Of a stretch of DNA of 64,000 bases, positions 48,879 through 60,006 are shown one piece after another. Within the stretch, counting starts at the first letter, position 1. Every line of letters begins with the position of its first letter. A program made the translations under genes and the position numbers. Under the pieces are notes generated by a model. That model worked only from the letters and a program-made list of their open reading frames with translations. It had not been told where the DNA came from and searched no databases. The DNA is from Klebsiella phage phiKp_32: sequence record LC768500.1; one strand, given 5' to 3'.

Positions 48879-51482
48879 ATGGACATGAGTGTGTCGTTAG
48901 TTCAACCAAGAACTGACTTGATACGTTACGCCGAGTCCAATATGTGGTCGTCTCCCTATAACGATCAACAATTCAGGCTGGAGCTACAACGTATCAGTCC
49001 CCCAGTAGGGTTGGTCAATACCTTTACGTATATGGGTAAAGGGAGAGGATTACCCGATTCCACTACCCCTCATCACGTCTATACTCTTAGTGGTACCTCG
49101 CTAGGGTACTGGAACTTCATCAACAAAAATATAAAAACTAATCCAGTTGATACCTGGGTGAGAGTTGATTGGCTCAGCCATCAACGTGGTGTTTATATTG
49201 AACTTTATCGCCCGGACGGCAGAATCTATCCAAGAGATTGCGCGTGGATCATGCGGACTTATGACGGTGCACACCTTCTTTGTGTGGAACGTTTAACCAA
49301 CTACCCGCTGCCATTAAACGATAACTTCTATCTACGGTGTTATACCCCTGATTGGGATATTTATCGTGGGGTGGAAGGAACCGACGAAAATAACGGGTTT
49401 CAGTATACCAGTTTCGTTGGTCCAACTCAGGCTAATCTCACGGCGCTCCAAACCCAACTCAATACGTGGAGTGGTTTAGGCGGATTATCGTCCATTTATG
49501 TCGATGGAATAAAATGTCCGTCTCTTCCTACCGTGTCGGCTGTTACGTCGAATACCATCGTAGAGATTTTCTACGATCCGACCGTTTATAGAGTCGATAA
49601 CTACGACTTGAAAACTCTGCCGGACTTCTATTCTGATTTGGATAGCAAGCGTAAATACATCGTCCACCCTCCTAAGGTTGAAGGTGACTGGGCGTTCCGG
49701 TACTTCGACGATTGCGACATCTACATCACGACCCCAACCGGGAAAGGGTTATATTTCAATATCAATAGTCCGGATGCATTGCGTCAACTCACTCACGCTG
49801 ACTATAGTGTGAGCGCTGATTACGTCGCGACCCTTATTGATACCCTGGCTGATCTTAAGAATCGAGACGATCTGAAATTGCAGGTGATTTATCGCAGCAC
49901 GAACTGGAGTCACGATCTCGTATGGGAAGCCAATCGAATCAGGTACCTTTACCGTCTTGATGATAATGGAATAATCAACGCAATGACTGCGGTTCACTCC
50001 ACGTTGCCTGAATGGACAGCCAGTGGTTTGGAAAATTCTTATTCCATGCTGATCAACAGACAGAAATGGGGAGAGCTGACCGATGAGAATATCGTTAAAG
50101 CGTTAGGGTTTAATGCCCTGACACAAGCTTTAGCATCATCACCGGTATCAATGCCCTACGTGGAAGGATACGCCGGTTACGACGTTCCTGTTAGCTTCCA
50201 GGAAGCTTGCGTGGCTTTTGAGTACGATGCCGATGGATTGCTCATCAACAATTATCCGTTGACTAACGCACTGAAATACGCTCCTAACAATCCAACCTGC
50301 GCCATGGTGGAGTTCATCGCTGGTAGTCCGGCCATCACCAGACATCAAGTGATTGGGAGTGATCCGGTTACGCTGTTGAGTAACTGGTCTTATTTAGCAT
50401 TGCAATCCGGCCGGTTAGTTTCCACCGGGGAATCTGACGGGAAATGGGCACCTGCGGTATTGGGGACTGACTATACCGTTACCAATGGTGTTCTTACCTG
50501 GATCCATGATTCAACAAACCGGATAGGTAGAGTTATCTTTAACGATGTTTTCCTTTACAAGGATTTCACGTTATCGCATCTCGACAACTCTATTTATTTC
50601 GCCATTACCGAAATATGGGAAGGCGGCGGGATAGCTGCGGACATCGCGCCGGCCAACATCTATATTTGGATGAACGGTCATCCCCTCATTCTTAACGTCG
50701 ATTACGTGATGGATTACCCTAGAGTGTTCATCAATAACAAGATGTATTTGAATGAGAGCGGAGAAAACGATTTTGTCGTGGCTGCGTTCGGGATAAGTAC
50801 GAGTTTAACTCAGCCGGTAGAAGAATCTGAATTAGGTTATATCGTCGGTGGGACCATAGGGGTTAACGGACGTTACAATATCCGGGACGGAAGGGATACA
50901 AGGCTTATCGCTGCGGGTCGCTTATTCCCATCTGGCGGTATCGATGATTCAGAGCAACACGCTCCTCAGAACGCCGGTTATTCTCTCAACGGTTACCCGT
51001 ATCAGGTTAAGCACGTTTATCAGACCGTTCAAAAAGCGGTGGATTTTAATAACTATCCTCGGTACGCCGAAGACAGGGATTTGGATAATCGCATCTGTAC
51101 TTACCTGACGACGTATTGTGAGAAACCAGGACCTATTGTTTGGCCTAACATCTCCGACAAATACAGATTGTTTAGTCCTTTCCTGAATCAGATCGTAAAC
51201 GCAATATTGCTGAAAATCATTACCGTCCCTGCACCAACCACAGGTGGGGTATTCAGTAAACAGGTGATCAATGAGCTAACCAAAGATTATCAATGGTTGC
51301 TTGATTACGATCCGGCTTTCTTGAAATACGACTTACGGTATTACACGATCAATCCGTTTTCCATGGCGGGTATGCAAACTGTAACAACCGCCCAGTTACT
51401 CTTCATCACTCAGGTTAACGAAATCTATCTCAATAGCGCGTGCGGCATAGAGGGATATTTTGAGGTAAATAATAATGTTTGA
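48879..51482 (+). CDS. hypothetical large virion-type protein
   Basis: 867-aa ORF between the sheath/tube pair and the terminase. Confidence 0.6.
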   Translation: MDMSVSLVQPRTDLIRYAESNMWSSPYNDQQFRLELQRISPPVGLVNTFTYMGKGRGLPDSTTPHHVYTLSGTSLGYWNFINKNIKTNPVDTWVRVDWLSHQRGVYIELYRPDGRIYPRDCAWIMRTYDGAHLLCVERLTNYPLPLNDNFYLRCYTPDWDIYRGVEGTDENNGFQYTSFVGPTQANLTALQTQLNTWSGLGGLSSIYVDGIKCPSLPTVSAVTSNTIVEIFYDPTVYRVDNYDLKTLPDFYSDLDSKRKYIVHPPKVEGDWAFRYFDDCDIYITTPTGKGLYFNINSPDALRQLTHADYSVSADYVATLIDTLADLKNRDDLKLQVIYRSTNWSHDLVWEANRIRYLYRLDDNGIINAMTAVHSTLPEWTASGLENSYSMLINRQKWGELTDENIVKALGFNALTQALASSPVSMPYVEGYAGYDVPVSFQEACVAFEYDADGLLINNYPLTNALKYAPNNPTCAMVEFIAGSPAITRHQVIGSDPVTLLSNWSYLALQSGRLVSTGESDGKWAPAVLGTDYTVTNGVLTWIHDSTNRIGRVIFNDVFLYKDFTLSHLDNSIYFAITEIWEGGGIAADIAPANIYIWMNGHPLILNVDYVMDYPRVFINNKMYLNESGENDFVVAAFGISTSLTQPVEESELGYIVGGTIGVNGRYNIRDGRDTRLIAAGRLFPSGGIDDSEQHAPQNAGYSLNGYPYQVKHVYQTVQKAVDFNNYPRYAEDRDLDNRICTYLTTYCEKPGPIVWPNISDKYRLFSPFLNQIVNAILLKIITVPAPTTGGVFSKQVINELTKDYQWLLDYDPAFLKYDLRYYTINPFSMAGMQTVTTAQLLFITQVNEIYLNSACGIEGYFEVNNNV

Positions 51483-53190
51483 TACCAGCACCACATCGAC
51501 CACATCAAGTACGAGTGTTGCGGCGACGGGTCCTCAGTTACCTAACTCGAATGATCTACTCACCCCACTCGATATTTCCAACCTTTACGATCCGGATACG
51601 GTAGCTGATTCTGATGCGTCCAAATACATCGTTGGTCGTGAAGGCCAAACTGTCATAGACGGATTGAACCAACGAGCTTACGTCATTACTCACGTTGGTA
51701 CCGAAGATGCGAAATACAAATCAACGTTAAAACGGATAGGATTCGTTACGGATAGCGACGACAACTCCAGTGACATCATTGGTTTACCGGGACGTTTTGC
51801 CGGCAATGGTGTTTTGGGAATCGACTACAGTGTCAGGCCTCCTCGGGCTGTCGTCGACGGCCGAGTATGGGCTCCTGATGCAGCTTACGGTTTGCTTTAT
51901 AAAGGTGTAGTTATCGGTGATACCGGTCAGGTCATTTCTGTTCAATACGCGACTAACGGTGATTTGATTTCTAATCAGGTCCCGACTAAATTAGCTGCGG
52001 TTAACAACATGACCAACCACAGCATCTTCACCACTACTGCGTTTTCGGTGACTCAAACAGCTGATGAACTCCCTGACGGAAGTTTGTGTACGCTGGTGTT
52101 CTTCGATGCCGCCGGTAACATGATTCCTGAACCTTATGAACTTGGCGTGATGCACACTGCGTTGCTGAGAGATCATCAGATCGGGATCAAGTATGTTTCG
52201 GCTATTGAACTGATTTCTCCTTGGTTCACTGATACGACCGATCCTACTACGCTGAACATTCCTATCAACGTTGCGATGAGTTCGGTTCAATTCTCTGCGC
52301 GCATCCATTATAACGATGGATCAACCAAAGAGCAATTGATTGACGGAACCAAATGTGCGATCATCGGGCTCAATGAATACAAACCTACTACGGTAGGTCA
52401 GCGTGCTTCGATCGTACTTCGTTATTCGTTCGATGAGGGCGAACAGGCTTTAATTGCTACGCCTAATTATCCCGACATGATCACCCAGGCTTATCAGATC
52501 GTTTGTACTCAGGTTAACGGTGCTTACTCTCCAAAACTCTACACGTATCCAGTGTGGAACGGAACAGGGTATTCGCTCAAACATTACCTGTACGATCTTA
52601 CCCGCCGATATGCAACTGACGTCACTCAGCACGTTACGCTCAACGACACGTCGCCAGCCTTCCAGCCGGCCAACTATGGCGTTCAGCAAGACATGGTGTT
52701 TAACCTGACGTTGTCAGACGTATCTTCGACGTTTAAAGCATGGACGCTGGTACAACATACTTCTATTACGTTGTATAAAGCGAATACCGGGACGGGTCGT
52801 CGTTGGGGCATTCGGTACTCTTCTGCGAATAACCCTTACGTCGCTTATAACGTCGGGTATACCGAAGCCAATGGTGTTCAGTCCATTAACCTGGCTGGCT
52901 CCATCCTCACGATTTCTGATTGGTTGAATCGACTCTACTATCCGGTAGAACCATTGATCGATACCACGAAAGAATCGGCGGCTCTGGTTCCTAACTATAT
53001 CCGGTTGGTTGACACTAACGGGGTTACTCACGACCTTGAAATCAACGATTGGAATAAACCTCAAGCTCTCACTTCTCCTGTTGCAAGTGGTCAAACCCTC
53101 TTCCTGCAATGGATTCAGAAATCAGAGAACGGGGCCGAACTCCAATTGGCGACCACGGGTGTTGTTGTAGACGTCGCTCCGAGCAATTAA
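51475..53190 (+). CDS. hypothetical protein with a Ser/Thr-rich N-terminus (possible fiber or structural protein)
   Basis: 571-aa ORF; ATGTTTGA overlap with the upstream gene. Confidence 0.55.
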   Translation: MFDTSTTSTTSSTSVAATGPQLPNSNDLLTPLDISNLYDPDTVADSDASKYIVGREGQTVIDGLNQRAYVITHVGTEDAKYKSTLKRIGFVTDSDDNSSDIIGLPGRFAGNGVLGIDYSVRPPRAVVDGRVWAPDAAYGLLYKGVVIGDTGQVISVQYATNGDLISNQVPTKLAAVNNMTNHSIFTTTAFSVTQTADELPDGSLCTLVFFDAAGNMIPEPYELGVMHTALLRDHQIGIKYVSAIELISPWFTDTTDPTTLNIPINVAMSSVQFSARIHYNDGSTKEQLIDGTKCAIIGLNEYKPTTVGQRASIVLRYSFDEGEQALIATPNYPDMITQAYQIVCTQVNGAYSPKLYTYPVWNGTGYSLKHYLYDLTRRYATDVTQHVTLNDTSPAFQPANYGVQQDMVFNLTLSDVSSTFKAWTLVQHTSITLYKANTGTGRRWGIRYSSANNPYVAYNVGYTEANGVQSINLAGSILTISDWLNRLYYPVEPLIDTTKESAALVPNYIRLVDTNGVTHDLEINDWNKPQALTSPVASGQTLFLQWIQKSENGAELQLATTGVVVDVAPSN

Positions 53191-53274
53191 CGTTCGTTAT
53201 CCTAACTACCGGTCTGAAAAGACCGGTAGTTATATTTTATATCGAGACCGAGACAAACCGACAGGATAAAAAAC

Positions 53275-56200
53275 ATGTTTGCAAGTAAAGACGAATTAGA
53301 ACTACATCTTGCAAGAGAAAAACTTGCTATGATAGGAGCGACAGAAAGTCAGCTCCCCGAATACCTGCTCGATGACGACACAGAAGCGCTTCCCATCAGG
53401 ACCCCAGAAGAGTTGCTTCTAGCCCATTATCGAGAAGATACGTTAAGCGCGATCAAAACGGTCAGGTTCTTAAAGGACTTCGAACGTTATAACGCTAAAC
53501 CGGATCTGACGACGAAGAACATCTCTTTCTTAAAGGTTGCTGAAATCTTTAGACTGATGGGAATAAAGAATTACTATTTCTGCCTCCAGCTCAACAATCC
53601 GTTGCTGATAGGGGTGGATCCTTACGACCCCAACCTGACAGATGAACAAAAATTCATGATCCTCCAGGAGTGCCGTGAAAACTTCTGGTATTTCCTCCGT
53701 GAAGTACTTCATTTGAGTGGGGGTATTCAGTTCCAGGCAAACAGAGCAAACATCTGTTTCTTATGGTGTTATTTGTGTCACGTCAACACCATGCTTATCA
53801 TTCCCCGCCAATTTGGAAAGCTGAGCAAGCTAGATTCCTTAGTGAAGATCCCAAATGGATGGCGTAGAATGGGTGACATCAAGATTAATGATGTGGTTAG
53901 TACTCCAGATGGGGGTACGGCTAGAGTCTCTGGTGTTTATCCTCAGGGCGTTAAATCGTTATATCGTGTTACCTTTTATGACGGTCGTACGGCGGATGTT
54001 GGCGCCGAGCATTACTGGACTGTTTGGGACCCAGGTAAAGGCGACGGTGGCATCTGGCGCACACTCACTACGTTAGAATGCCAACAACGCATGACTGAGA
54101 TGAAGAAGTCGCATAACTATCTCTCCGTTCCTTTGGTTCAGCCTGATAATGACCCGGACAAGAAACTCGCCATTCATCCTTATGTCTTAGGTGTATTGCT
54201 GGGTGACGGCGGTATTTCTGGCAGTTCTGTTTTAATAACCAAACCCGACAAAGAACTTTACGATAAAGTCTGTAGTCTCATTCCTGATACTCTAGTCGCC
54301 GAATGGTGTAATGAAAAAACATTTGTCATTAAGCGCAGACCTGATGTTGAAGAAAAGACTAACGTAATGAAAGATAGTCTTAAAAGTGTTGATCTGATGG
54401 GCCTTCGGTCCTGGGAGAAATTTGTTCCTACAGATTATTTAAACGGCTCTTATCGTCAGCGTTTAGAGTTGTTGCAGGGTTTACTCGATACTGATGGACA
54501 CGCAGGTACCGGTGGTAACATTGAGTACTGTACGACGTCCCCCAAACTCGCTAAAGACTTCGTTTACCTTGCTCGTAGCATCGGTGCTATCTGTACTTGT
54601 AAAGAACGCCAGACGTATTATACCGACAAAGGAGAACGTAAACCTGGCCGGGTTTCTTATCGCATTAGCGTTCGTTATACGAAACCCTGGGAACTCTTCA
54701 CGTTAAGTCGTAAACGGGATCGTTTAGTTGACAAAACACGAGGGTTAAAATTTAACAGCCGTTTAACCATGCGTTCCATCGAGTATGTAGGGGAAGAAGA
54801 GACTCAGTGCATTGAAGTGGACCATCCTGATCATCTTTACATCATGGATGATTTCGTCGTCACTCATAATACTGTTTCTGCTCAGAGCATTATGTTCTGG
54901 CTAACTTACTTAACCGGGAAGTCTTACGAGTCCCACTTAATCACCCTGAAAGACGATAACCGTAGTCAGTTCGTAGAGGCGTTAAAGGGTATCCGTAACA
55001 ACATCCCGAGTTACTTAACCAACGTGGGGTGGCGAGATAAGGATAGCGGTAACTCGTTAACCTATAGTGCGTTTGGGGATGATAAGAAAAACATCTTCCG
55101 TATTAGCGTGCCGCAAATCGGTAGAGAAGCCGCTCGTAACGTCGGTCGTGGTTTGACTATCAAAACGCGTATGATCGACGAACCGGCATATATCAACTTC
55201 ATGGAAGAGATACTTAACGGTGCAGGTCCTAGTACGCTAACGGCTCGTGCTAACGCCAGAAGAATAGGCGAACCCTACGGGACGGGATTCATTACCACGC
55301 CTGCGAGTAAAACGACAGCCAGCGGCGAATACATGTACAACATGTTGATGGATGCGACCGAGTGGCGAGAAACGTTCTTCGACAGTTTTAACGAAAGTCA
55401 TCTGTACCAGCGTTTGATTAAAGCGAGTCCTGTGGAGGGAATCACCAGTCCTACCGTAGGCATGGTTTTCAACTACTTGCAGTTGGGTAGGAATAAAGAC
55501 TGGGTTAAGAAAACCATAGACGAGTTAAAGTTAAGTTTAGCCGAAGCGAAGATTGACTTACTGTTAATGTGGGACGATGCCAGTAAAGGTAAACTTTTCG
55601 ACGACTTAACTCGAGAAGCATTAAACGAGGGTAAACGAGGAATACTCTGGAGTCAGGAAGTAGGGAGTACGGGGTTGTTCATCGACTGGTTTATTACGCC
55701 AGAAGAACACACTCAAATCATTACTGGGAATAGTCAAACCTTTTACGTCGTCGGTTGTGATACTTCCGCTGCGCAAAACCGAGACGCCTGTACTGTCGTG
55801 ATAAGAGACGTCATGGACGGTAAAGTGATTGGGGTGGGTCGTTATCCGATAGCCTACTTAATGGACGTAGGCGAGGTATTACAGACGATCCTGTTAGAGA
55901 TTAAGAACAGCTTACTGATCATCGAGCGTAACTTCGCGCACCACATGATCGACCAACTGCTCGTTAGTCTTCCTGCATTAGGCATCGATCCCTTTAAACG
56001 TATCTTTAATCAGATCGTACAAGATCCGGTTAAGTACGAAAAAGAAATGATCGAGTTTAAACAACGTAATTTCGCTAACAGAGACAGTCACTTCTATCTG
56101 AGATTCAAACATCTGTTTGGGTTCGTTACCAATGCCAAAACGCGTGACGAAGTATATAGTTTTATCCAGGAAGCCGTAGGGACGACCGGAGATAAAATTT

Positions 56201-56673
56201 ACTATACCAAACTCATCGACGAGCTGGTTAACCTCAAAGAGAAGGGAGGTAGGATAGACCACGAAAACAACAAACACGATGACCTGGTTATCGCTTGGTT
56301 GTTGGGATTCTGGTTCTTGAAACTAGGTAACAACAAAAGTGAGTACGGAATTCCTCCAGGCATTAGTTTGAGTAAAATCAGCTTAATGCGTGTTGGGGAC
56401 GATAAGAATGAGGAAACCAACAGTGCGCACAATGAAGCGATGGTTGCACTCTATCGTCGTAAAGTTGAAGAGCTGAGTGACAGACTTATTAAAACCACCG
56501 ACAATACCGTAGCTCAAAGGATCGAGTACATGATTGACAAACTCAGCAGCATGATCCCTCAGGATAAGCGTAAGAGTTTGACCATCGATGAAATCGTTAG
56601 GAAAGCCAAGGAAGAAAGAGGCCGTCGAGTATTGGAAGCACGTAAGTTACGCAGTCGTTACGTGTATATCTAA
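53275..56673 (+). CDS. terL: terminase large subunit (T4 gp17-like) interrupted by an intein; mature protein about 782 aa
   Basis: Exteins: ..IPRQFGK|TVSAQSIMFWLTYL.. (cf. T4 gp17 SRQLGKTTVVAIFLAHF), ..RGLTIKTRMIDEPAYI.. (Walker B), ..GTGFITTPA.., nuclease ..FYVVGCDTSAAQNRDACTVVIRDV.. (cf. [23 protein letters not shown]). Confidence 0.8.
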   Translation: MFASKDELELHLAREKLAMIGATESQLPEYLLDDDTEALPIRTPEELLLAHYREDTLSAIKTVRFLKDFERYNAKPDLTTKNISFLKVAEIFRLMGIKNYYFCLQLNNPLLIGVDPYDPNLTDEQKFMILQECRENFWYFLREVLHLSGGIQFQANRANICFLWCYLCHVNTMLIIPRQFGKLSKLDSLVKIPNGWRRMGDIKINDVVSTPDGGTARVSGVYPQGVKSLYRVTFYDGRTADVGAEHYWTVWDPGKGDGGIWRTLTTLECQQRMTEMKKSHNYLSVPLVQPDNDPDKKLAIHPYVLGVLLGDGGISGSSVLITKPDKELYDKVCSLIPDTLVAEWCNEKTFVIKRRPDVEEKTNVMKDSLKSVDLMGLRSWEKFVPTDYLNGSYRQRLELLQGLLDTDGHAGTGGNIEYCTTSPKLAKDFVYLARSIGAICTCKERQTYYTDKGERKPGRVSYRISVRYTKPWELFTLSRKRDRLVDKTRGLKFNSRLTMRSIEYVGEEETQCIEVDHPDHLYIMDDFVVTHNTVSAQSIMFWLTYLTGKSYESHLITLKDDNRSQFVEALKGIRNNIPSYLTNVGWRDKDSGNSLTYSAFGDDKKNIFRISVPQIGREAARNVGRGLTIKTRMIDEPAYINFMEEILNGAGPSTLTARANARRIGEPYGTGFITTPASKTTASGEYMYNMLMDATEWRETFFDSFNESHLYQRLIKASPVEGITSPTVGMVFNYLQLGRNKDWVKKTIDELKLSLAEAKIDLLLMWDDASKGKLFDDLTREALNEGKRGILWSQEVGSTGLFIDWFITPEEHTQIITGNSQTFYVVGCDTSAAQNRDACTVVIRDVMDGKVIGVGRYPIAYLMDVGEVLQTILLEIKNSLLIIERNFAHHMIDQLLVSLPALGIDPFKRIFNQIVQDPVKYEKEMIEFKQRNFANRDSHFYLRFKHLFGFVTNAKTRDEVYSFIQEAVGTTGDKIYYTKLIDELVNLKEKGGRIDHENNKHDDLVIAWLLGFWFLKLGNNKSEYGIPPGISLSKISLMRVGDDKNEETNSAHNEAMVALYRRKVEELSDRLIKTTDNTVAQRIEYMIDKLSSMIPQDKRKSLTIDEIVRKAKEERGRRVLEARKLRSRYVYI
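53821..54870 (+). mobile_element. intein (about 350 aa) with a LAGLIDADG homing endonuclease, inserted in the terminase Walker A loop
   Basis: C-terminal ..FVVTHN|T; LAGLIDADG motifs ..LGVLLGDGG.. and ..LQGLLDTDGH..; block-B-like ..GAEHYWTV..; block-F-like ..TQCIEVDHP..; first residue Leu. Confidence 0.7.
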
Positions 56674-56735
56674 ATTTTTATAAGTCTATATTACCATGAT
56701 GTAAACCTCGTATAAACTTTTTAGGAGCTAACATC

Positions 56736-56951
56736 ATGAACAAGTTTAATGTTACCTTTATCCGTCACGACGATGCTCTGGTCGCTAACGTTCCTTGTGT
56801 CAACGAGGAAAAGGATGTGTTACTCGGAGGTGGGTTGGTCGATTCTCGTTTAGGTCATCTCGAAGTCGATATCAAAACGGGAACTCTCGTTCTCAGATCC
56901 AATTGCGCCAACGATTCACTTACGACGGAATGTCGCCTGCATTACATTTAA
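56736..56951 (+). CDS. hypothetical small protein
   Basis: TTAGGAGCTAACATC-ATG initiation motif. Confidence 0.5.
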   Translation: MNKFNVTFIRHDDALVANVPCVNEEKDVLLGGGLVDSRLGHLEVDIKTGTLVLRSNCANDSLTTECRLHYI

Positions 56952-56995
56952 CATTATACCCCTACGGCGTAATCGCCGTAGGGGTATAGTTTTTA
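56950..56995. terminator. hairpin TATACCCCTACGGCG..CGCCGTAGGGGTATA between convergent genes
   Basis: Long perfect inverted repeat plus a T-run. Confidence 0.55.
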
Positions 56996-56996
56996 T

Positions 56997-57605
56997 TTAG
57001 TTTCTAATGTAATCCACCAACGCTTCAAAATCACCGTCGTAGAAATACGGCTTAATTTTGATTAAAGAACAAGCCGCAGACAAAGTGTTTTCGTAACGAT
57101 GAACGAATCGCTCAAAATACTCTCGGTTGAGAAGACGGGTTTCTTGATCATCTAAAGATACTCTTTTATTCCAAGCTCTATCTAAAAACGTATCATAATC
57201 GATTTTTACAAAGATAAGTTTATCGGGGTACATTTGGGTGTTGAATATTTTTAAAGCCTTTACGTTGCGTTCTATAACACTGTAAAGACCTATTCGACCA
57301 TTACCCTGATAAACCGCAGTAGAAATAAAACAGCGATCGGAGATAACTGTCTTCCCTTGATTTAAAGCAGGAACAACAACTTTATCTCCTAACTCTATTC
57401 GCTGAGCAATAGCGAGATAAAGTTTTGCTTCTTCACAAATCCCGTTATCGATAATGAGATTACGGATGGTTAACAAAGAGTCCGGAGACTTAGCCGGTTC
57501 TTCCACTTGAAGAACGTCGTAATTATCGGTCTTCAATCTCTCTGTTAGTTGTTTGGTTAAAGTTGACTTACCCGCTAAGTCCATGCCTTCGAGAACAATG
57601 TACAT
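56997..57605 (-). CDS. tmk: thymidylate kinase
   Basis: MYIVLEGMDLAGKSTLTKQL.. P-loop typical of dTMP kinases. Confidence 0.75.
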   Translation of the reverse strand: MYIVLEGMDLAGKSTLTKQLTERLKTDNYDVLQVEEPAKSPDSLLTIRNLIIDNGICEEAKLYLAIAQRIELGDKVVVPALNQGKTVISDRCFISTAVYQGNGRIGLYSVIERNVKALKIFNTQMYPDKLIFVKIDYDTFLDRAWNKRVSLDDQETRLLNREYFERFVHRYENTLSAACSLIKIKPYFYDGDFEALVDYIRN

Positions 57606-57675
57606 AGTGAATTTCTCCTGTAGATTTTTATCACTATAACTTATTTATAACCGTTTTAATTTAGGAGTTAGTATC

Positions 57676-58017
57676 ATGGCTGAACACAAGAATACCTTAA
57701 ACGAAATAACAGGCGGAATGAAGCGAGGAGAGTTTTATTCTTTATCGGCGTCAACCCCTCCTGAAAAATCGGTCTTTCATAACACCTACAGTAATTCCGC
57801 TACACCTGAAAACAAAGTAGCGAGTATGAAACTTTTTATCTTCGATTATTACAACAATCTTAAACCGGATATGGTTTTCGCTTATAATCAAGAAGAAGCG
57901 ATCGCCATGATCAAAGAAGCGGTGATTACGGGTCAACCAGATAAATTTTATTCTTCGGTTAAAGAGATTGAAATTCCCGCAGATCCAGCTTACGTTCGTT
58001 ACAATTCCGGAGAATAA
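57676..58017 (+). CDS. hypothetical protein
   Basis: TTAGGAGTTAGTATC-ATG initiation motif. Confidence 0.5.
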   Translation: MAEHKNTLNEITGGMKRGEFYSLSASTPPEKSVFHNTYSNSATPENKVASMKLFIFDYYNNLKPDMVFAYNQEEAIAMIKEAVITGQPDKFYSSVKEIEIPADPAYVRYNSGE

Positions 58018-58020
58018 AAA

Positions 58021-58947
58021 ATGGAAAAGAAAAAAGAACCATCTTTGTCTAAATCAGACTTGCCTGAAAATATGCTAAGAACTCCGTTTGATCTTGTTGA
58101 CGATTATCAAGAAAATAAAAAGGGTGTGGTTAAACTCGCCTTACCTAACGATCAACTCCCTACAGATGCGCTGGGTCGGACCCCTGACTTACGGTCGGAC
58201 GGTTCTCCTGCTTTTAGAAGAGAAGATCTTTTTAAAGGTTTACGGGCCGTCGAAATAGCACCTGTACCAGAAAAATCATCGGACTCCGGTAATGTGCAGC
58301 AACAAAGAATTGAACTTCTGATCAAAAAGATAGCAGAGATGTTCGATTGTTCTGAAGAACGGGCAGCTGGCATCGTAAAGGAAGCCCTGGCCCAAAGGAA
58401 TATAGACCAAACGCTAGACAGTATGTTTGATAACATTAGTAAATTTCAGGAAATCGGGGTTGTAAATGGAATGCCTCCAAAACTCATCCCTCCCGCCTCT
58501 GGTGTCATGTGGATCAATCTAGTAGATCCGGCGACCGGAGAACCTATTAAGAGAGAAGATCTCGTTAAAGCAATGCAAGACGTCGATCTGGAAGAGGCAT
58601 ATCCGGGTACTCGTAAAACAAATCCTGAGCTATACCGGACTTCACCTTATCCGACTCCCGAAGAGATGATTACTTCTCAGAACATCGGCATGGGTAAGTT
58701 GGTACACGTTACCGACAAATGGTTCTTCTATCGTCATCACCAATTCCACAGCATTCATCACAAACGTCGTAAAGCACACTTCGATGAAATCAGTCTTATG
58801 CTGATTCGTTTTAACTGGGTTCAGTACAAAGAAGCGCTGCATAAGAAGAAATATCATATCTTCGATAAGACCCCTCGGGCTAAGGCTGAACGTTTAGCAC
58901 TTAAACGTTCCAGAGAAAAGATTAAATCAACTTTGATGATTAGTTGA
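58021..58947 (+). CDS. hypothetical protein
   Basis: 308-aa ORF. Confidence 0.55.
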   Translation: MEKKKEPSLSKSDLPENMLRTPFDLVDDYQENKKGVVKLALPNDQLPTDALGRTPDLRSDGSPAFRREDLFKGLRAVEIAPVPEKSSDSGNVQQQRIELLIKKIAEMFDCSEERAAGIVKEALAQRNIDQTLDSMFDNISKFQEIGVVNGMPPKLIPPASGVMWINLVDPATGEPIKREDLVKAMQDVDLEEAYPGTRKTNPELYRTSPYPTPEEMITSQNIGMGKLVHVTDKWFFYRHHQFHSIHHKRRKAHFDEISLMLIRFNWVQYKEALHKKKYHIFDKTPRAKAERLALKRSREKIKSTLMIS

Positions 58948-58955
58948 GGTTAGGC

Positions 58956-59255
58956 GTGGAGATTCCATTAGTAAGTTCAGGGGTTGGGATACACGATAGG
59001 TATTACGAGATAATCAGATATGGCTTTAACGAGTGTTTAAACGGATTGGATGACGAAAACAACCAAGCCAGTTACAAAGATTATCATGGCAATATTTTTA
59101 CGGCATCCCGATTGAGACCTAACAATAGCTCTAACTTTATTTATTCTTTCAGGGTAGGAGAACGAACCCTATTAACAGGTGTAACTGATCCAAGTGCGGT
59201 GGACTTAACGGAATACCGTAACCTTTTTAGGTTCATTAAAATCAAAGGTTATTGA
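58956..59255 (+). CDS. hypothetical protein (GTG start)
   Basis: RBS GAGG 6 nt upstream of GTG 58956. Confidence 0.4.
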   Translation: MEIPLVSSGVGIHDRYYEIIRYGFNECLNGLDDENNQASYKDYHGNIFTASRLRPNNSSNFIYSFRVGERTLLTGVTDPSAVDLTEYRNLFRFIKIKGY

Positions 59256-59689
59256 CGATGAATGAACAAACCACTTATAAATCAGGTTATCTCCCCATCC
59301 AACTCGAAGGGTGCTCTAAAGAACAACTCATTGACATCAACGACCAGTTATTCAGCAGGCTTAAAGAACTTCGTAAAACCTATCTTCCGGGAGATTACGA
59401 AATCACCCTCATCACCGATATTCTGAAAGGCAAAGAACCCGAAAAGAATAGTTTCTTTTACAGTTTGGTCGGAACTCATACCACCCATCTGGGAGATCGT
59501 CTCGACTCAGAGTTTAAAATCAAATTAAATTCTGTGGCAATTTTCCCTTACTCTTGGGTTCTCAGGGGTCATAAAGCCAGAAACGATAAAGATCCCGAAA
59601 TTAAAAGATTGAAGAAACACCTCTTTCGTATTTATAAACACAATCTTCATAAGCGGTCTAAATTCCATAAATTAAGGAAAGGTCAATGA
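59252..59689 (+). CDS. hypothetical protein with a basic C-terminus
   Basis: ORF with ATGA overlap. Confidence 0.5.
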   Translation: MTMNEQTTYKSGYLPIQLEGCSKEQLIDINDQLFSRLKELRKTYLPGDYEITLITDILKGKEPEKNSFFYSLVGTHTTHLGDRLDSEFKIKLNSVAIFPYSWVLRGHKARNDKDPEIKRLKKHLFRIYKHNLHKRSKFHKLRKGQ

Positions 59690-60006
59690 GAGCTTGTAAG
59701 CAACCCTTTACGATACATCGATACCCTAGTGTCGATAAGTTAATAAGCGAACCCGGGAACAAATCTCTGCTGTTATTGAGTTTCTTCAACTTAGAGATCA
59801 AAATCAAGAACGCAGAGCTTAGGGCCGTTAACAATCCATTTCCAGGAGATGTTTTCTTTACTGAGGAAGTCGGTAACGATAAAATTCTCTTAGTTGTCCG
59901 GTTTAACCTCGGTACCGGGGAACGTTACTACCAACTCAATAATCTGGAATGGGTTGTTTGCACTAACTCTCTCACCGTGAGAGAACTCACTTTACTTTTA
60001 GGATAA
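59686..60006 (+). CDS. hypothetical protein
   Basis: ORF with ATGA overlap. Confidence 0.5.
   Translation: MRACKQPFTIHRYPSVDKLISEPGNKSLLLLSFFNLEIKIKNAELRAVNNPFPGDVFFTEEVGNDKILLVVRFNLGTGERYYQLNNLEWVVCTNSLTVRELTLLLG

Follow-up and report, generated by a model that had tools for sequence, protein, structure and literature searches.

The window analysed here, 64,000 nucleotides of DNA from Klebsiella phage phiKp_32 (sequence record LC768500.1), carries an open reading frame (ORF) of 1132 residues which is, by its matches, the gene for the large subunit of the terminase (TerL) in a jumbo phage of Miamivirus-like type (Chimalliviridae), and which is interrupted by an in-frame insert of 350 residues. 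A first-pass annotation, drawn from the nucleotide letters and their translations, had read this insert (53821-54870) as an intein with a LAGLIDADG endonuclease, of class 3 type, in the Walker A loop of a terminase; its coordinates, its length, its end in VVTHN followed by T, its motifs and its flanks are all as described there. The parts of the gene are given below, with the evidence for each in brackets; counts out of 109 refer to an intein family whose assembly is described in the next section.

53275..56673, + strand: TerL precursor ORF, 1132 residues, stop codon included (ORF list, PHROG match, identity to the YC1 gene)
53275..53820, + strand: N-extein, 182 residues, ending in the Walker A sequence PRQFGK (alignment with the intein-free TerL of pTD1, VP4B and Survivor)
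53803..53820, + strand: N-terminal half of the Walker A motif, P-R-Q-F-G-K, with Lys182 as the -1 residue (orthologue alignment; GK before the intein in 89 of 109)
53821..54870, + strand: intein, 350 residues, Leu1 to Asn350 (orthologue alignment, PDB match, family, AlphaFold, Foldseek)
54871..54873, + strand: Thr+1, predicted second nucleophile of splicing and Walker A Thr of mature TerL (+1 residue in the family: T in 93 and S in 16 of 109)
54871..56673, + strand: C-extein, 600 residues and stop, presumably comprising the remaining ATPase domain and the nuclease domain (orthologue alignment, PHROG matches of the extein)

At the DNA level, the gene is 96.5% identical to the coding sequence of Klebsiella phage YC1, whose record names its own copy 'terminase large subunit @ intein-containing', and 90-96% identical to those of phages BUCTxx100, KPN8, Miami (genus Miamivirus, family Chimalliviridae) and VB_ZK_P1, with genomes of ~252-257 kb. 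The precursor matches the PHROG family phrog_2 ('terminase large subunit') at E = 2.6e-42, and the spliced, 782-residue extein does so better, at E = 2.1e-50, in a single alignment (residues 33-269) that runs uninterrupted over the junction. In line with this, RefSeq orthologues are named terminase large subunit, which together with the phrog_2 match bears out the host protein proposed in the first-pass annotation, and the gene adjoins virion structural genes. A tblastn search with the spliced protein returned 314 phage records, mostly from jumbo phages and many of them labelled terminase large subunit, and found TerL in a single copy per related genome, so that a working protein has to come from this gene.

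The boundaries of the insert were set by an alignment of fifteen orthologous TerL proteins, 12 of them intein-bearing (from 7 distinct lineages) and three intein-free. In the latter, from Vibrio phages pTD1 and VP4B and Pantoea phage Survivor, PRQ(Q/S)GK continues without a gap into TV, which fixes both junctions independently and places the insert, Leu183 to Asn532 of the precursor, exactly where it had been proposed, between the Lys and the Thr of the Walker A motif (PRQFGK and T). It starts LSKLDSLVKIPNGW (LSKLDSL) and ends DDFVVTHN, between the flanks ..MLIIPRQFGK and TVSAQSIMFW... The first residue, Leu, encoded by CTG (53821..53823), is likewise confirmed by the three intein-free orthologues, and because residues -1, 1, 350 and +1 (K, L, N and T) all differ, the junction cannot slide. 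An in-frame insertion missing from three orthologues, which ends in Asn and has a HINT fold, corresponds to what is generally expected of an intein. When the intein and its three parts were compared with the window by tblastn, no second intein or HINT domain was found, and GC content (0.40-0.49 inside the intein, 0.43-0.49 outside) gives no compositional sign of recent import.

Fold, family and signature residues of the insert

The insert divides into a splicing domain in two halves and an endonuclease domain set between them, as follows.

53821..54135, + strand: N-terminal half of the splicing (HINT) domain, intein residues ~1-105, with blocks A and B, boundary approximate (β-strands of the model; aligns to 6BS8 residues 4-68)
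54010..54018, + strand: block B His64-Tyr65-Trp66 (B:10 to B:12), Trp66 giving the WCT triplet its W (aligned to H65 and W67 in Msm DnaBi1; H and W in 109 of 109)
54136..54720, + strand: LAGLIDADG homing-endonuclease domain, intein residues ~106-300, boundaries approximate (Pfam PF14528, α/β region of the model, fold matches to PI-SceI and I-DmoI)
54187..54213, + strand: LAGLIDADG motif 1, LGVLLGDGG, catalytic Asp129 (Asp in 103 of 109; invariant Gly columns)
54472..54501, + strand: LAGLIDADG motif 2, LQGLLDTDGH, catalytic Asp225 (Asp in 104 of 109; Pfam PF14528)
54721..54870, + strand: C-terminal half of the splicing domain, with blocks F and G (aligns to 6BS8 residues 116-139; model strands 314-333 and 346-349)
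54808..54810, + strand: block F Cys330 (F:4), predicted initiating nucleophile (Cys118 of Msm DnaBi1; 109 of 109; role from PMC2807308 and PMC6195587)
54862..54870, + strand: block G Thr348-His349-Asn350 (G:5 to G:7) (T137, H138 and N139 of 6BS8; 109 of 109)

Within the intein, the motifs lie at residues 63-66 (EHYW), 123-131 (LGVLLGDGG), 218-227 (LQGLLDTDGH), 328-333 (TQCIEV) and 348-350 (THN). Both LAGLIDADG motifs noticed in the first reading are there with their catalytic Asp, as they are in ~95% of the family, and the Pfam model LAGLIDADG_3 (PF14528) matches residues 213-267 with 32.3 bits, against a cut-off of 22.5. An AlphaFold model of the intein, built from a 59-sequence alignment, folds into a HINT domain and a LAGLIDADG domain with high confidence (predicted local distance difference test, pLDDT, 92.6; predicted template modelling score, pTM, 0.91), with the LAGLIDADG helices at residues 120-129 and 211-225. 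Searched as a whole molecule with Foldseek, this model finds as its best matches the inteins PI-SceI (yeast VMA1), TliVMA, PhoVMA and PI-PfuI, which share the combination of a HINT domain with a two-motif LAGLIDADG domain (E = 8e-19 to 8e-12; query template modelling score, TM-score, 0.57-0.69) at a sequence identity of 12-16%, PI-SceI being ~100 residues longer. These we take to be class 1 inteins that begin with Cys. Among the matches to mini-inteins, class 3 structures lead, with a target TM-score of ~0.8.

In sequence, too, the closest proteins of known structure are class 3. A phmmer search of the PDB sequences with the intein returned inteins only, headed by 6BS8 (E = 2.2e-8) and followed by 6RIX/6RIY (E = 1.1e-6 for 6RIX), so that 6BS8 and 6RIX rank above the wild-type class 1 intein gp41-1 (6QAZ, E = 4.6e-4). 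The first of these structures is the Mycobacterium smegmatis DnaB intein 1 (Msm DnaBi1; PMC6195587) and the second the M. chimaera DnaB1 intein (PMC7664689), both experimentally established as class 3. In the alignment, H64, W66, C330, T348, H349 and N350 of the phiKp_32 intein fall on H65, W67, C118, T137, H138 and N139 of 6BS8, the residues named as the catalytic centre and WCT triplet of Msm DnaBi1 (PMC6195587); residue 4 aligns with residue 4, and by extrapolation Leu1 corresponds to the first residue of that chain (Ala1). The H-x-W, the block F Cys and the T-H-N that the first-pass annotation had picked out as a class 3 (WCT) signature are thus in register with a class 3 structure. The two DnaB inteins follow the same P-loop insertion logic (GK before S or T), have the H, W, C, T, H and N in register and a non-nucleophilic residue 1 (Ala), and give a HINT TM-score of ~0.8. 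They differ in being mini-inteins that lack an endonuclease and sit in a bacterial helicase, and in having Ala at position 1 and Asp at B:7, where the phiKp_32 intein has Leu and Gly. Msm DnaBi1 has in addition been described with a redox-sensing Cys48.

We then considered the wider family. In a set of 5.8 billion proteins, 280 match the intein at E <= 1e-5, the best at 1.9e-77, and these comprise PhoH, DnaB, Snf2-type and other P-loop ATPases. The 97 complete inteins that could be excised from these matches, together with the 12 TerL inteins, make up the 109-member family. The H at B:10, the W at B:12, the C at F:4, the T at G:5 and the final H and N are each invariant across all 109 members, while position 1 is occupied by A in 88, L in 6, S in 4, G in 3, N and Q in 2 each, and E, M, D and C in one each. 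Leu1 is therefore a minority state (6 of 109), and not a unique one; the 12 intein-bearing TerL proteins show L, N, E, Q, A, M or G there. An invariant internal Cys combined with a freely varying, mostly non-nucleophilic residue 1 is what the class 3 mechanism predicts. The intein is preceded by GK in 89 members and by GR in 14, and followed by T in 93 and S in 16. The consensus of block B among the relatives reads ECCxxHLW, with a Cys at B:7. In phage genomes, a tblastn search with the intein found 863 records, 300 of them from mycobacteriophages. Chance can be dismissed as a source of matches as strong and as numerous as these.

Class 3 was defined by Tori et al. (2010) through the WCT triplet and the missing N-terminal nucleophile (PMC2807308). 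By these sequence features, the phiKp_32 intein belongs to the class: there is no Cys, Ser or Thr at position 1, a Trp stands at B:12, a Cys at F:4 and a Thr at G:5, and the +1 residue is a Thr, within the Ser or Thr (rarely Cys) of the definition. Class 3 inteins are further marked by an absolute requirement for Cys F:4 and by a block F branched intermediate that is labile to thiols (PMC2807308; Tori and Perler, 2016).

Proposed splicing, homing and the alternatives

We read the insert as a class 3 intein of full length that carries a LAGLIDADG homing endonuclease, lies between Lys182 and the Walker A Thr of TerL, and splices and homes along the route proposed below, and put the probability of this reading at roughly 0.88. 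Its boundaries, its fold, its signature residues, its family membership, the purifying selection on it and its patchy distribution are what the analysis shows. From the intact residues, the purifying selection and the single TerL copy we infer that it splices; the chemistry of splicing and the endonuclease activity are likewise put forward here as predictions.

In the proposed route, taken over from proven homologues (PMC2807308, PMC6195587, PMC7664689; Tori and Perler, 2016), His64 and Trp66 of block B would help the thiol of Cys330 (F:4) to attack the Lys182-Leu183 peptide bond and to take the N-extein onto its own side chain as a thioester (the block F branched intermediate). The N-extein would then pass to the hydroxyl of Thr+1 (the block G branched intermediate), cyclisation of Asn350, helped by His349, would free the intein, and an O-to-N acyl shift would leave a native Lys-Thr bond, the restored P-loop PRQFGKT and a TerL of 782 residues. 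As the ATPase site is split until splicing has taken place, packaging should depend on it; the first-pass annotation had stated both the mechanism and this dependence more firmly than the signature and the homologues allow. The excised, 350-residue intein is in turn predicted to cut intein-free TerL alleles of co-infecting phages in the DNA that encodes the P-loop, and so to be copied into them. A candidate target of this kind is the intein-free site formed by ATGCTTATCATTCCCCGCCAATTTGGAAAG directly followed by ACTGTTTCTGCTCAGAGCATTATGTTCTGG, and the sites in pTD1 and VP4B are candidates as well. The reading frame is open in six of six close relatives and the ratio of non-synonymous to synonymous substitution rates (dN/dS) is 0.12-0.14 across the intein when compared with the allele of Miami and KPN8; for the endonuclease domain, the value of 0.14 against the Miami allele and the patchy distribution of the intein lend indirect support to a function.

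Some points weigh against this reading. On the side of the host protein, Pfam finds no terminase model in the spliced extein, only noise, and neither phmmer nor a four-sequence profile of the extein finds a match among the PDB sequences; the identification as TerL thus appears to rest on the PHROGs, the names of the orthologues and the neighbouring virion genes, and the protein would be a phiKZ/EL-type jumbo-phage terminase of 782 residues that goes undetected by any Pfam terminase model. On the side of the mechanism, position 7 of block B (intein residue 61, 54001..54003) is a Gly, where 66 of the 109 relatives have a Cys, and according to Tori and Perler (2016) WCT inteins could in principle take the class 2 route until Cys F:4 has been mutated. 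The signature would predict, and not prove, the class 3 route.

The remark by Tori and Perler (2016) is also what can be said for the alternative that survives best, that of a genuine intein which follows the class 2 (KlbA-like) route, with Thr+1 attacking the N-terminal junction directly and Cys330 only assisting. The named examples of that class, the KlbA inteins, have Cys at +1 and Asp at F:4, whereas the phiKp_32 intein has Thr and Cys, and the F:4 Cys is invariant in all 109 members; we regard this route as improbable.

Another alternative concerns the host. Orthologous TerL genes in RefSeq and GenBank go under such names as 'DarB-like antirestriction', 'putative ATP-dependent DNA helicase' and 'gyrA: DNA gyrase subunit A', and taken at face value these would make the interrupted protein a helicase, a DarB-like or a GyrA-like protein. 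The intein alone, however, matches the NCBIfam models of intein-containing DnaB and GyrA_w_intein as well as PHROG primase and helicase families, and this is the source of such names, which are probably misannotations. The extein alone matches TerL families only (among the PHROGs, also phrog_32359, E = 7.2e-37), the intein-free orthologues are named terminase and virion structural genes adjoin the gene. We accordingly rejected a non-terminase host, which is very improbable.

That the element has decayed and no longer splices, the gene being a pseudogene or the protein working with the insertion in place, has a precedent in that decayed class 3-like inteins exist (Arthrobacter Arth_1007), and we found nothing that speaks for it here. 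No splicing residue has been lost, the frame stays open in each of the close relatives under a dN/dS of ~0.13, a single TerL copy was found per related genome, and a domain of 350 residues within the P-loop would part its Lys from its Thr. On these grounds decay was rejected, its chances being remote. Finally, a standard class 1 intein with a shifted N-terminal boundary, in which Ser184 directly after Leu1 (intein position 2) would be the first nucleophile, and whose general form, a Ser nucleophile at position 1, the first-pass annotation had itself named as something that could overturn its reading, was rejected as having next to no chance, since its ligated product would read GKL-TV where the intein-free orthologues read GK-TV with no extra residue, since position 2 is unconserved and Q in most relatives, and since the class 1 Thr is missing at B:7 of block B and a Cys takes the place of Asp at F:4.

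Distribution and exchange among jumbo phages

Among TerL orthologues of 49-63% identity, occupancy of the site is patchy. The intein is absent from the TerL of pTD1, VP4B, Survivor, pEt-SU and AH04, and the site is occupied in Aphrodite1, EL, RisingSun, N1M2 and Aeromonas phages; more distant phiKZ-type TerL proteins are without an intein. Such a distribution is expected of a mobile element. The inteins of EL gp11, RisingSun gp240, Aphrodite1 gp43, N1M2, the Aeromonas Chaoshanvirus and FishSpeaker lie at the same insertion site of orthologous TerL proteins with the H, W, C, T, H and N conserved, belong to the same family and are alleles of one intein site; they differ from the phiKp_32 intein in length (293-360 residues) and in residue 1 (Q, L, E, A, G or M). 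Outside the Miami-like group, tblastn finds no intein closer than 50% identity. The intein of EL ORF11 is listed in InBase. Members of the same family also occur in other essential jumbo-phage genes, namely those of the RNA polymerase β subunit, SNF2/SF2 helicases and DNA primase (by tblastn, in EL, MIZ-Pa99, HHBS47_1, FishSpeaker, PhiPA3, 2050HW and SA002), and over the whole genome EL and its relatives have four matching places each, while YC1, Miami, KPN8 and BUCTxx100 have one each.

Compared with Miami in bins of 150 nucleotides, the window is 91-100% identical from 50250 to 57500, mostly 95-99%, except from ~53796 to ~54690, where identity falls to 63-89%. The 5' break is sharp and lies ~25 nucleotides upstream of the insertion site. 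Intein codons 1 to ~300 differ from those of Miami and KPN8 by ~23-37% at the DNA level, with a synonymous rate (dS) of 1.1-1.2 and a dN/dS of 0.12-0.14, whereas divergence is 2-5% in the exteins and over the last ~50 intein codons (98% identical to Miami), with a dS of 0.10-0.25. Two allele types can be told apart, one shared by the window, YC1 and BUCTxx100 and the other by Miami and KPN8. Two diverged alleles at one site in phages that are otherwise ~97% identical, together with the breakpoints, point to a recombinational exchange in which the greater part of the intein was replaced. From here one may go on to suppose that the intein is being actively exchanged among co-circulating Miamivirus-like jumbo phages, which we consider rather doubtful. 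The endonuclease might in that case act as a factor of competition or speciation in co-infection, as has been described for the intron-borne endonuclease of phiPA3 and phiKZ, and that conditional splicing could time the activation of packaging is an idea we offer as such.

A patch of the N-extein, 53439..53706, is 75-90% identical to BUCTxx100 (dS of 0.58 for the N-extein), in contrast to the intein, which is 99.4% identical (dS of 0.026), so that the TerL gene is a mosaic; as ~115 near-identical bases separate the patch from the intein, we do not ascribe it to homing. Between the upstream virion-protein gene and TerL, the sequence at 53196..53236 (ctaactaccggtctgaaaagaccggtagttatatttta) comprises a GC-rich hairpin and, after it, a T-rich run, and the Miami record has a terminator annotated at the equivalent position. 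Downstream of the thymidylate kinase gene, at ~57600..58650, collinearity between the window and Miami is lost (identity of 22-68%, with rearranged BLAST pieces), which suggests a different content of small genes. YC1 is collinear with the window, at 95%, over 50001..60000.

The founding class 3 intein, that of the mycobacteriophage Bethlehem DnaB (MP-Be DnaB), is likewise borne by a phage and of similar size, with Asn341 as its last residue against 350 residues here; going by its published description, it shares the WCT triplet, Thr+1, a P-loop ATPase host and a non-nucleophilic residue 1 (Pro) with the phiKp_32 intein, and differs in its DnaB-like host protein and phage lineage (PMC2807308). 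Class 3 inteins in the P-loops of phage TerL proteins were described in the same work (Tori et al., 2010; PMC2807308), and Kelley et al. (2016) called the position between Lys and Thr (TerL1-a) the 'classic' P-loop site (PMC5050341). Five mycobacteriophage TerL inteins (sites b, c, e, f and g) were found to splice and two to cut DNA, the intein at the GK/T site a lying outside that assay (PMC5050341). A survey of 2025 counted 287 class 3 inteins in actinophages, among which canonical LAGLIDADG endonucleases are confined almost entirely to the inteins of TerL and Cas4 (bioRxiv 10.1101/2025.01.02.630785). These actinophage and mycobacteriophage TerL inteins have the same host function and the same GK/T site (TerL1-a) as the intein described here, and the gp2 terminase of mycobacteriophage Phrappuccino reaches 37% identity to it (tblastn), but they reside in another TerL family, and the hosts of phiKp_32-type phages are Gram-negative. 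In the library of papers searched, none treats the TerL inteins of Chimalliviridae by class.

The kind of intein has thus been well known since 2010, and that of phiKp_32 adds a member in the TerL family of jumbo phages while leaving the understanding of protein splicing unchanged. The TerL of Miamivirus-like phages should be annotated as a spliced protein of 782 residues. What was on record from actinophages, class 3 inteins at the classic GK/T site, is extended to the TerL of nucleus-forming jumbo phages with Gram-negative hosts, where occupancy of the site is patchy; this agrees with the phage origin and spread that have been proposed for such inteins. Two diverged alleles in genomes that are nearly identical, in turn, provide a natural system in which the exchange of inteins between phages can be studied.

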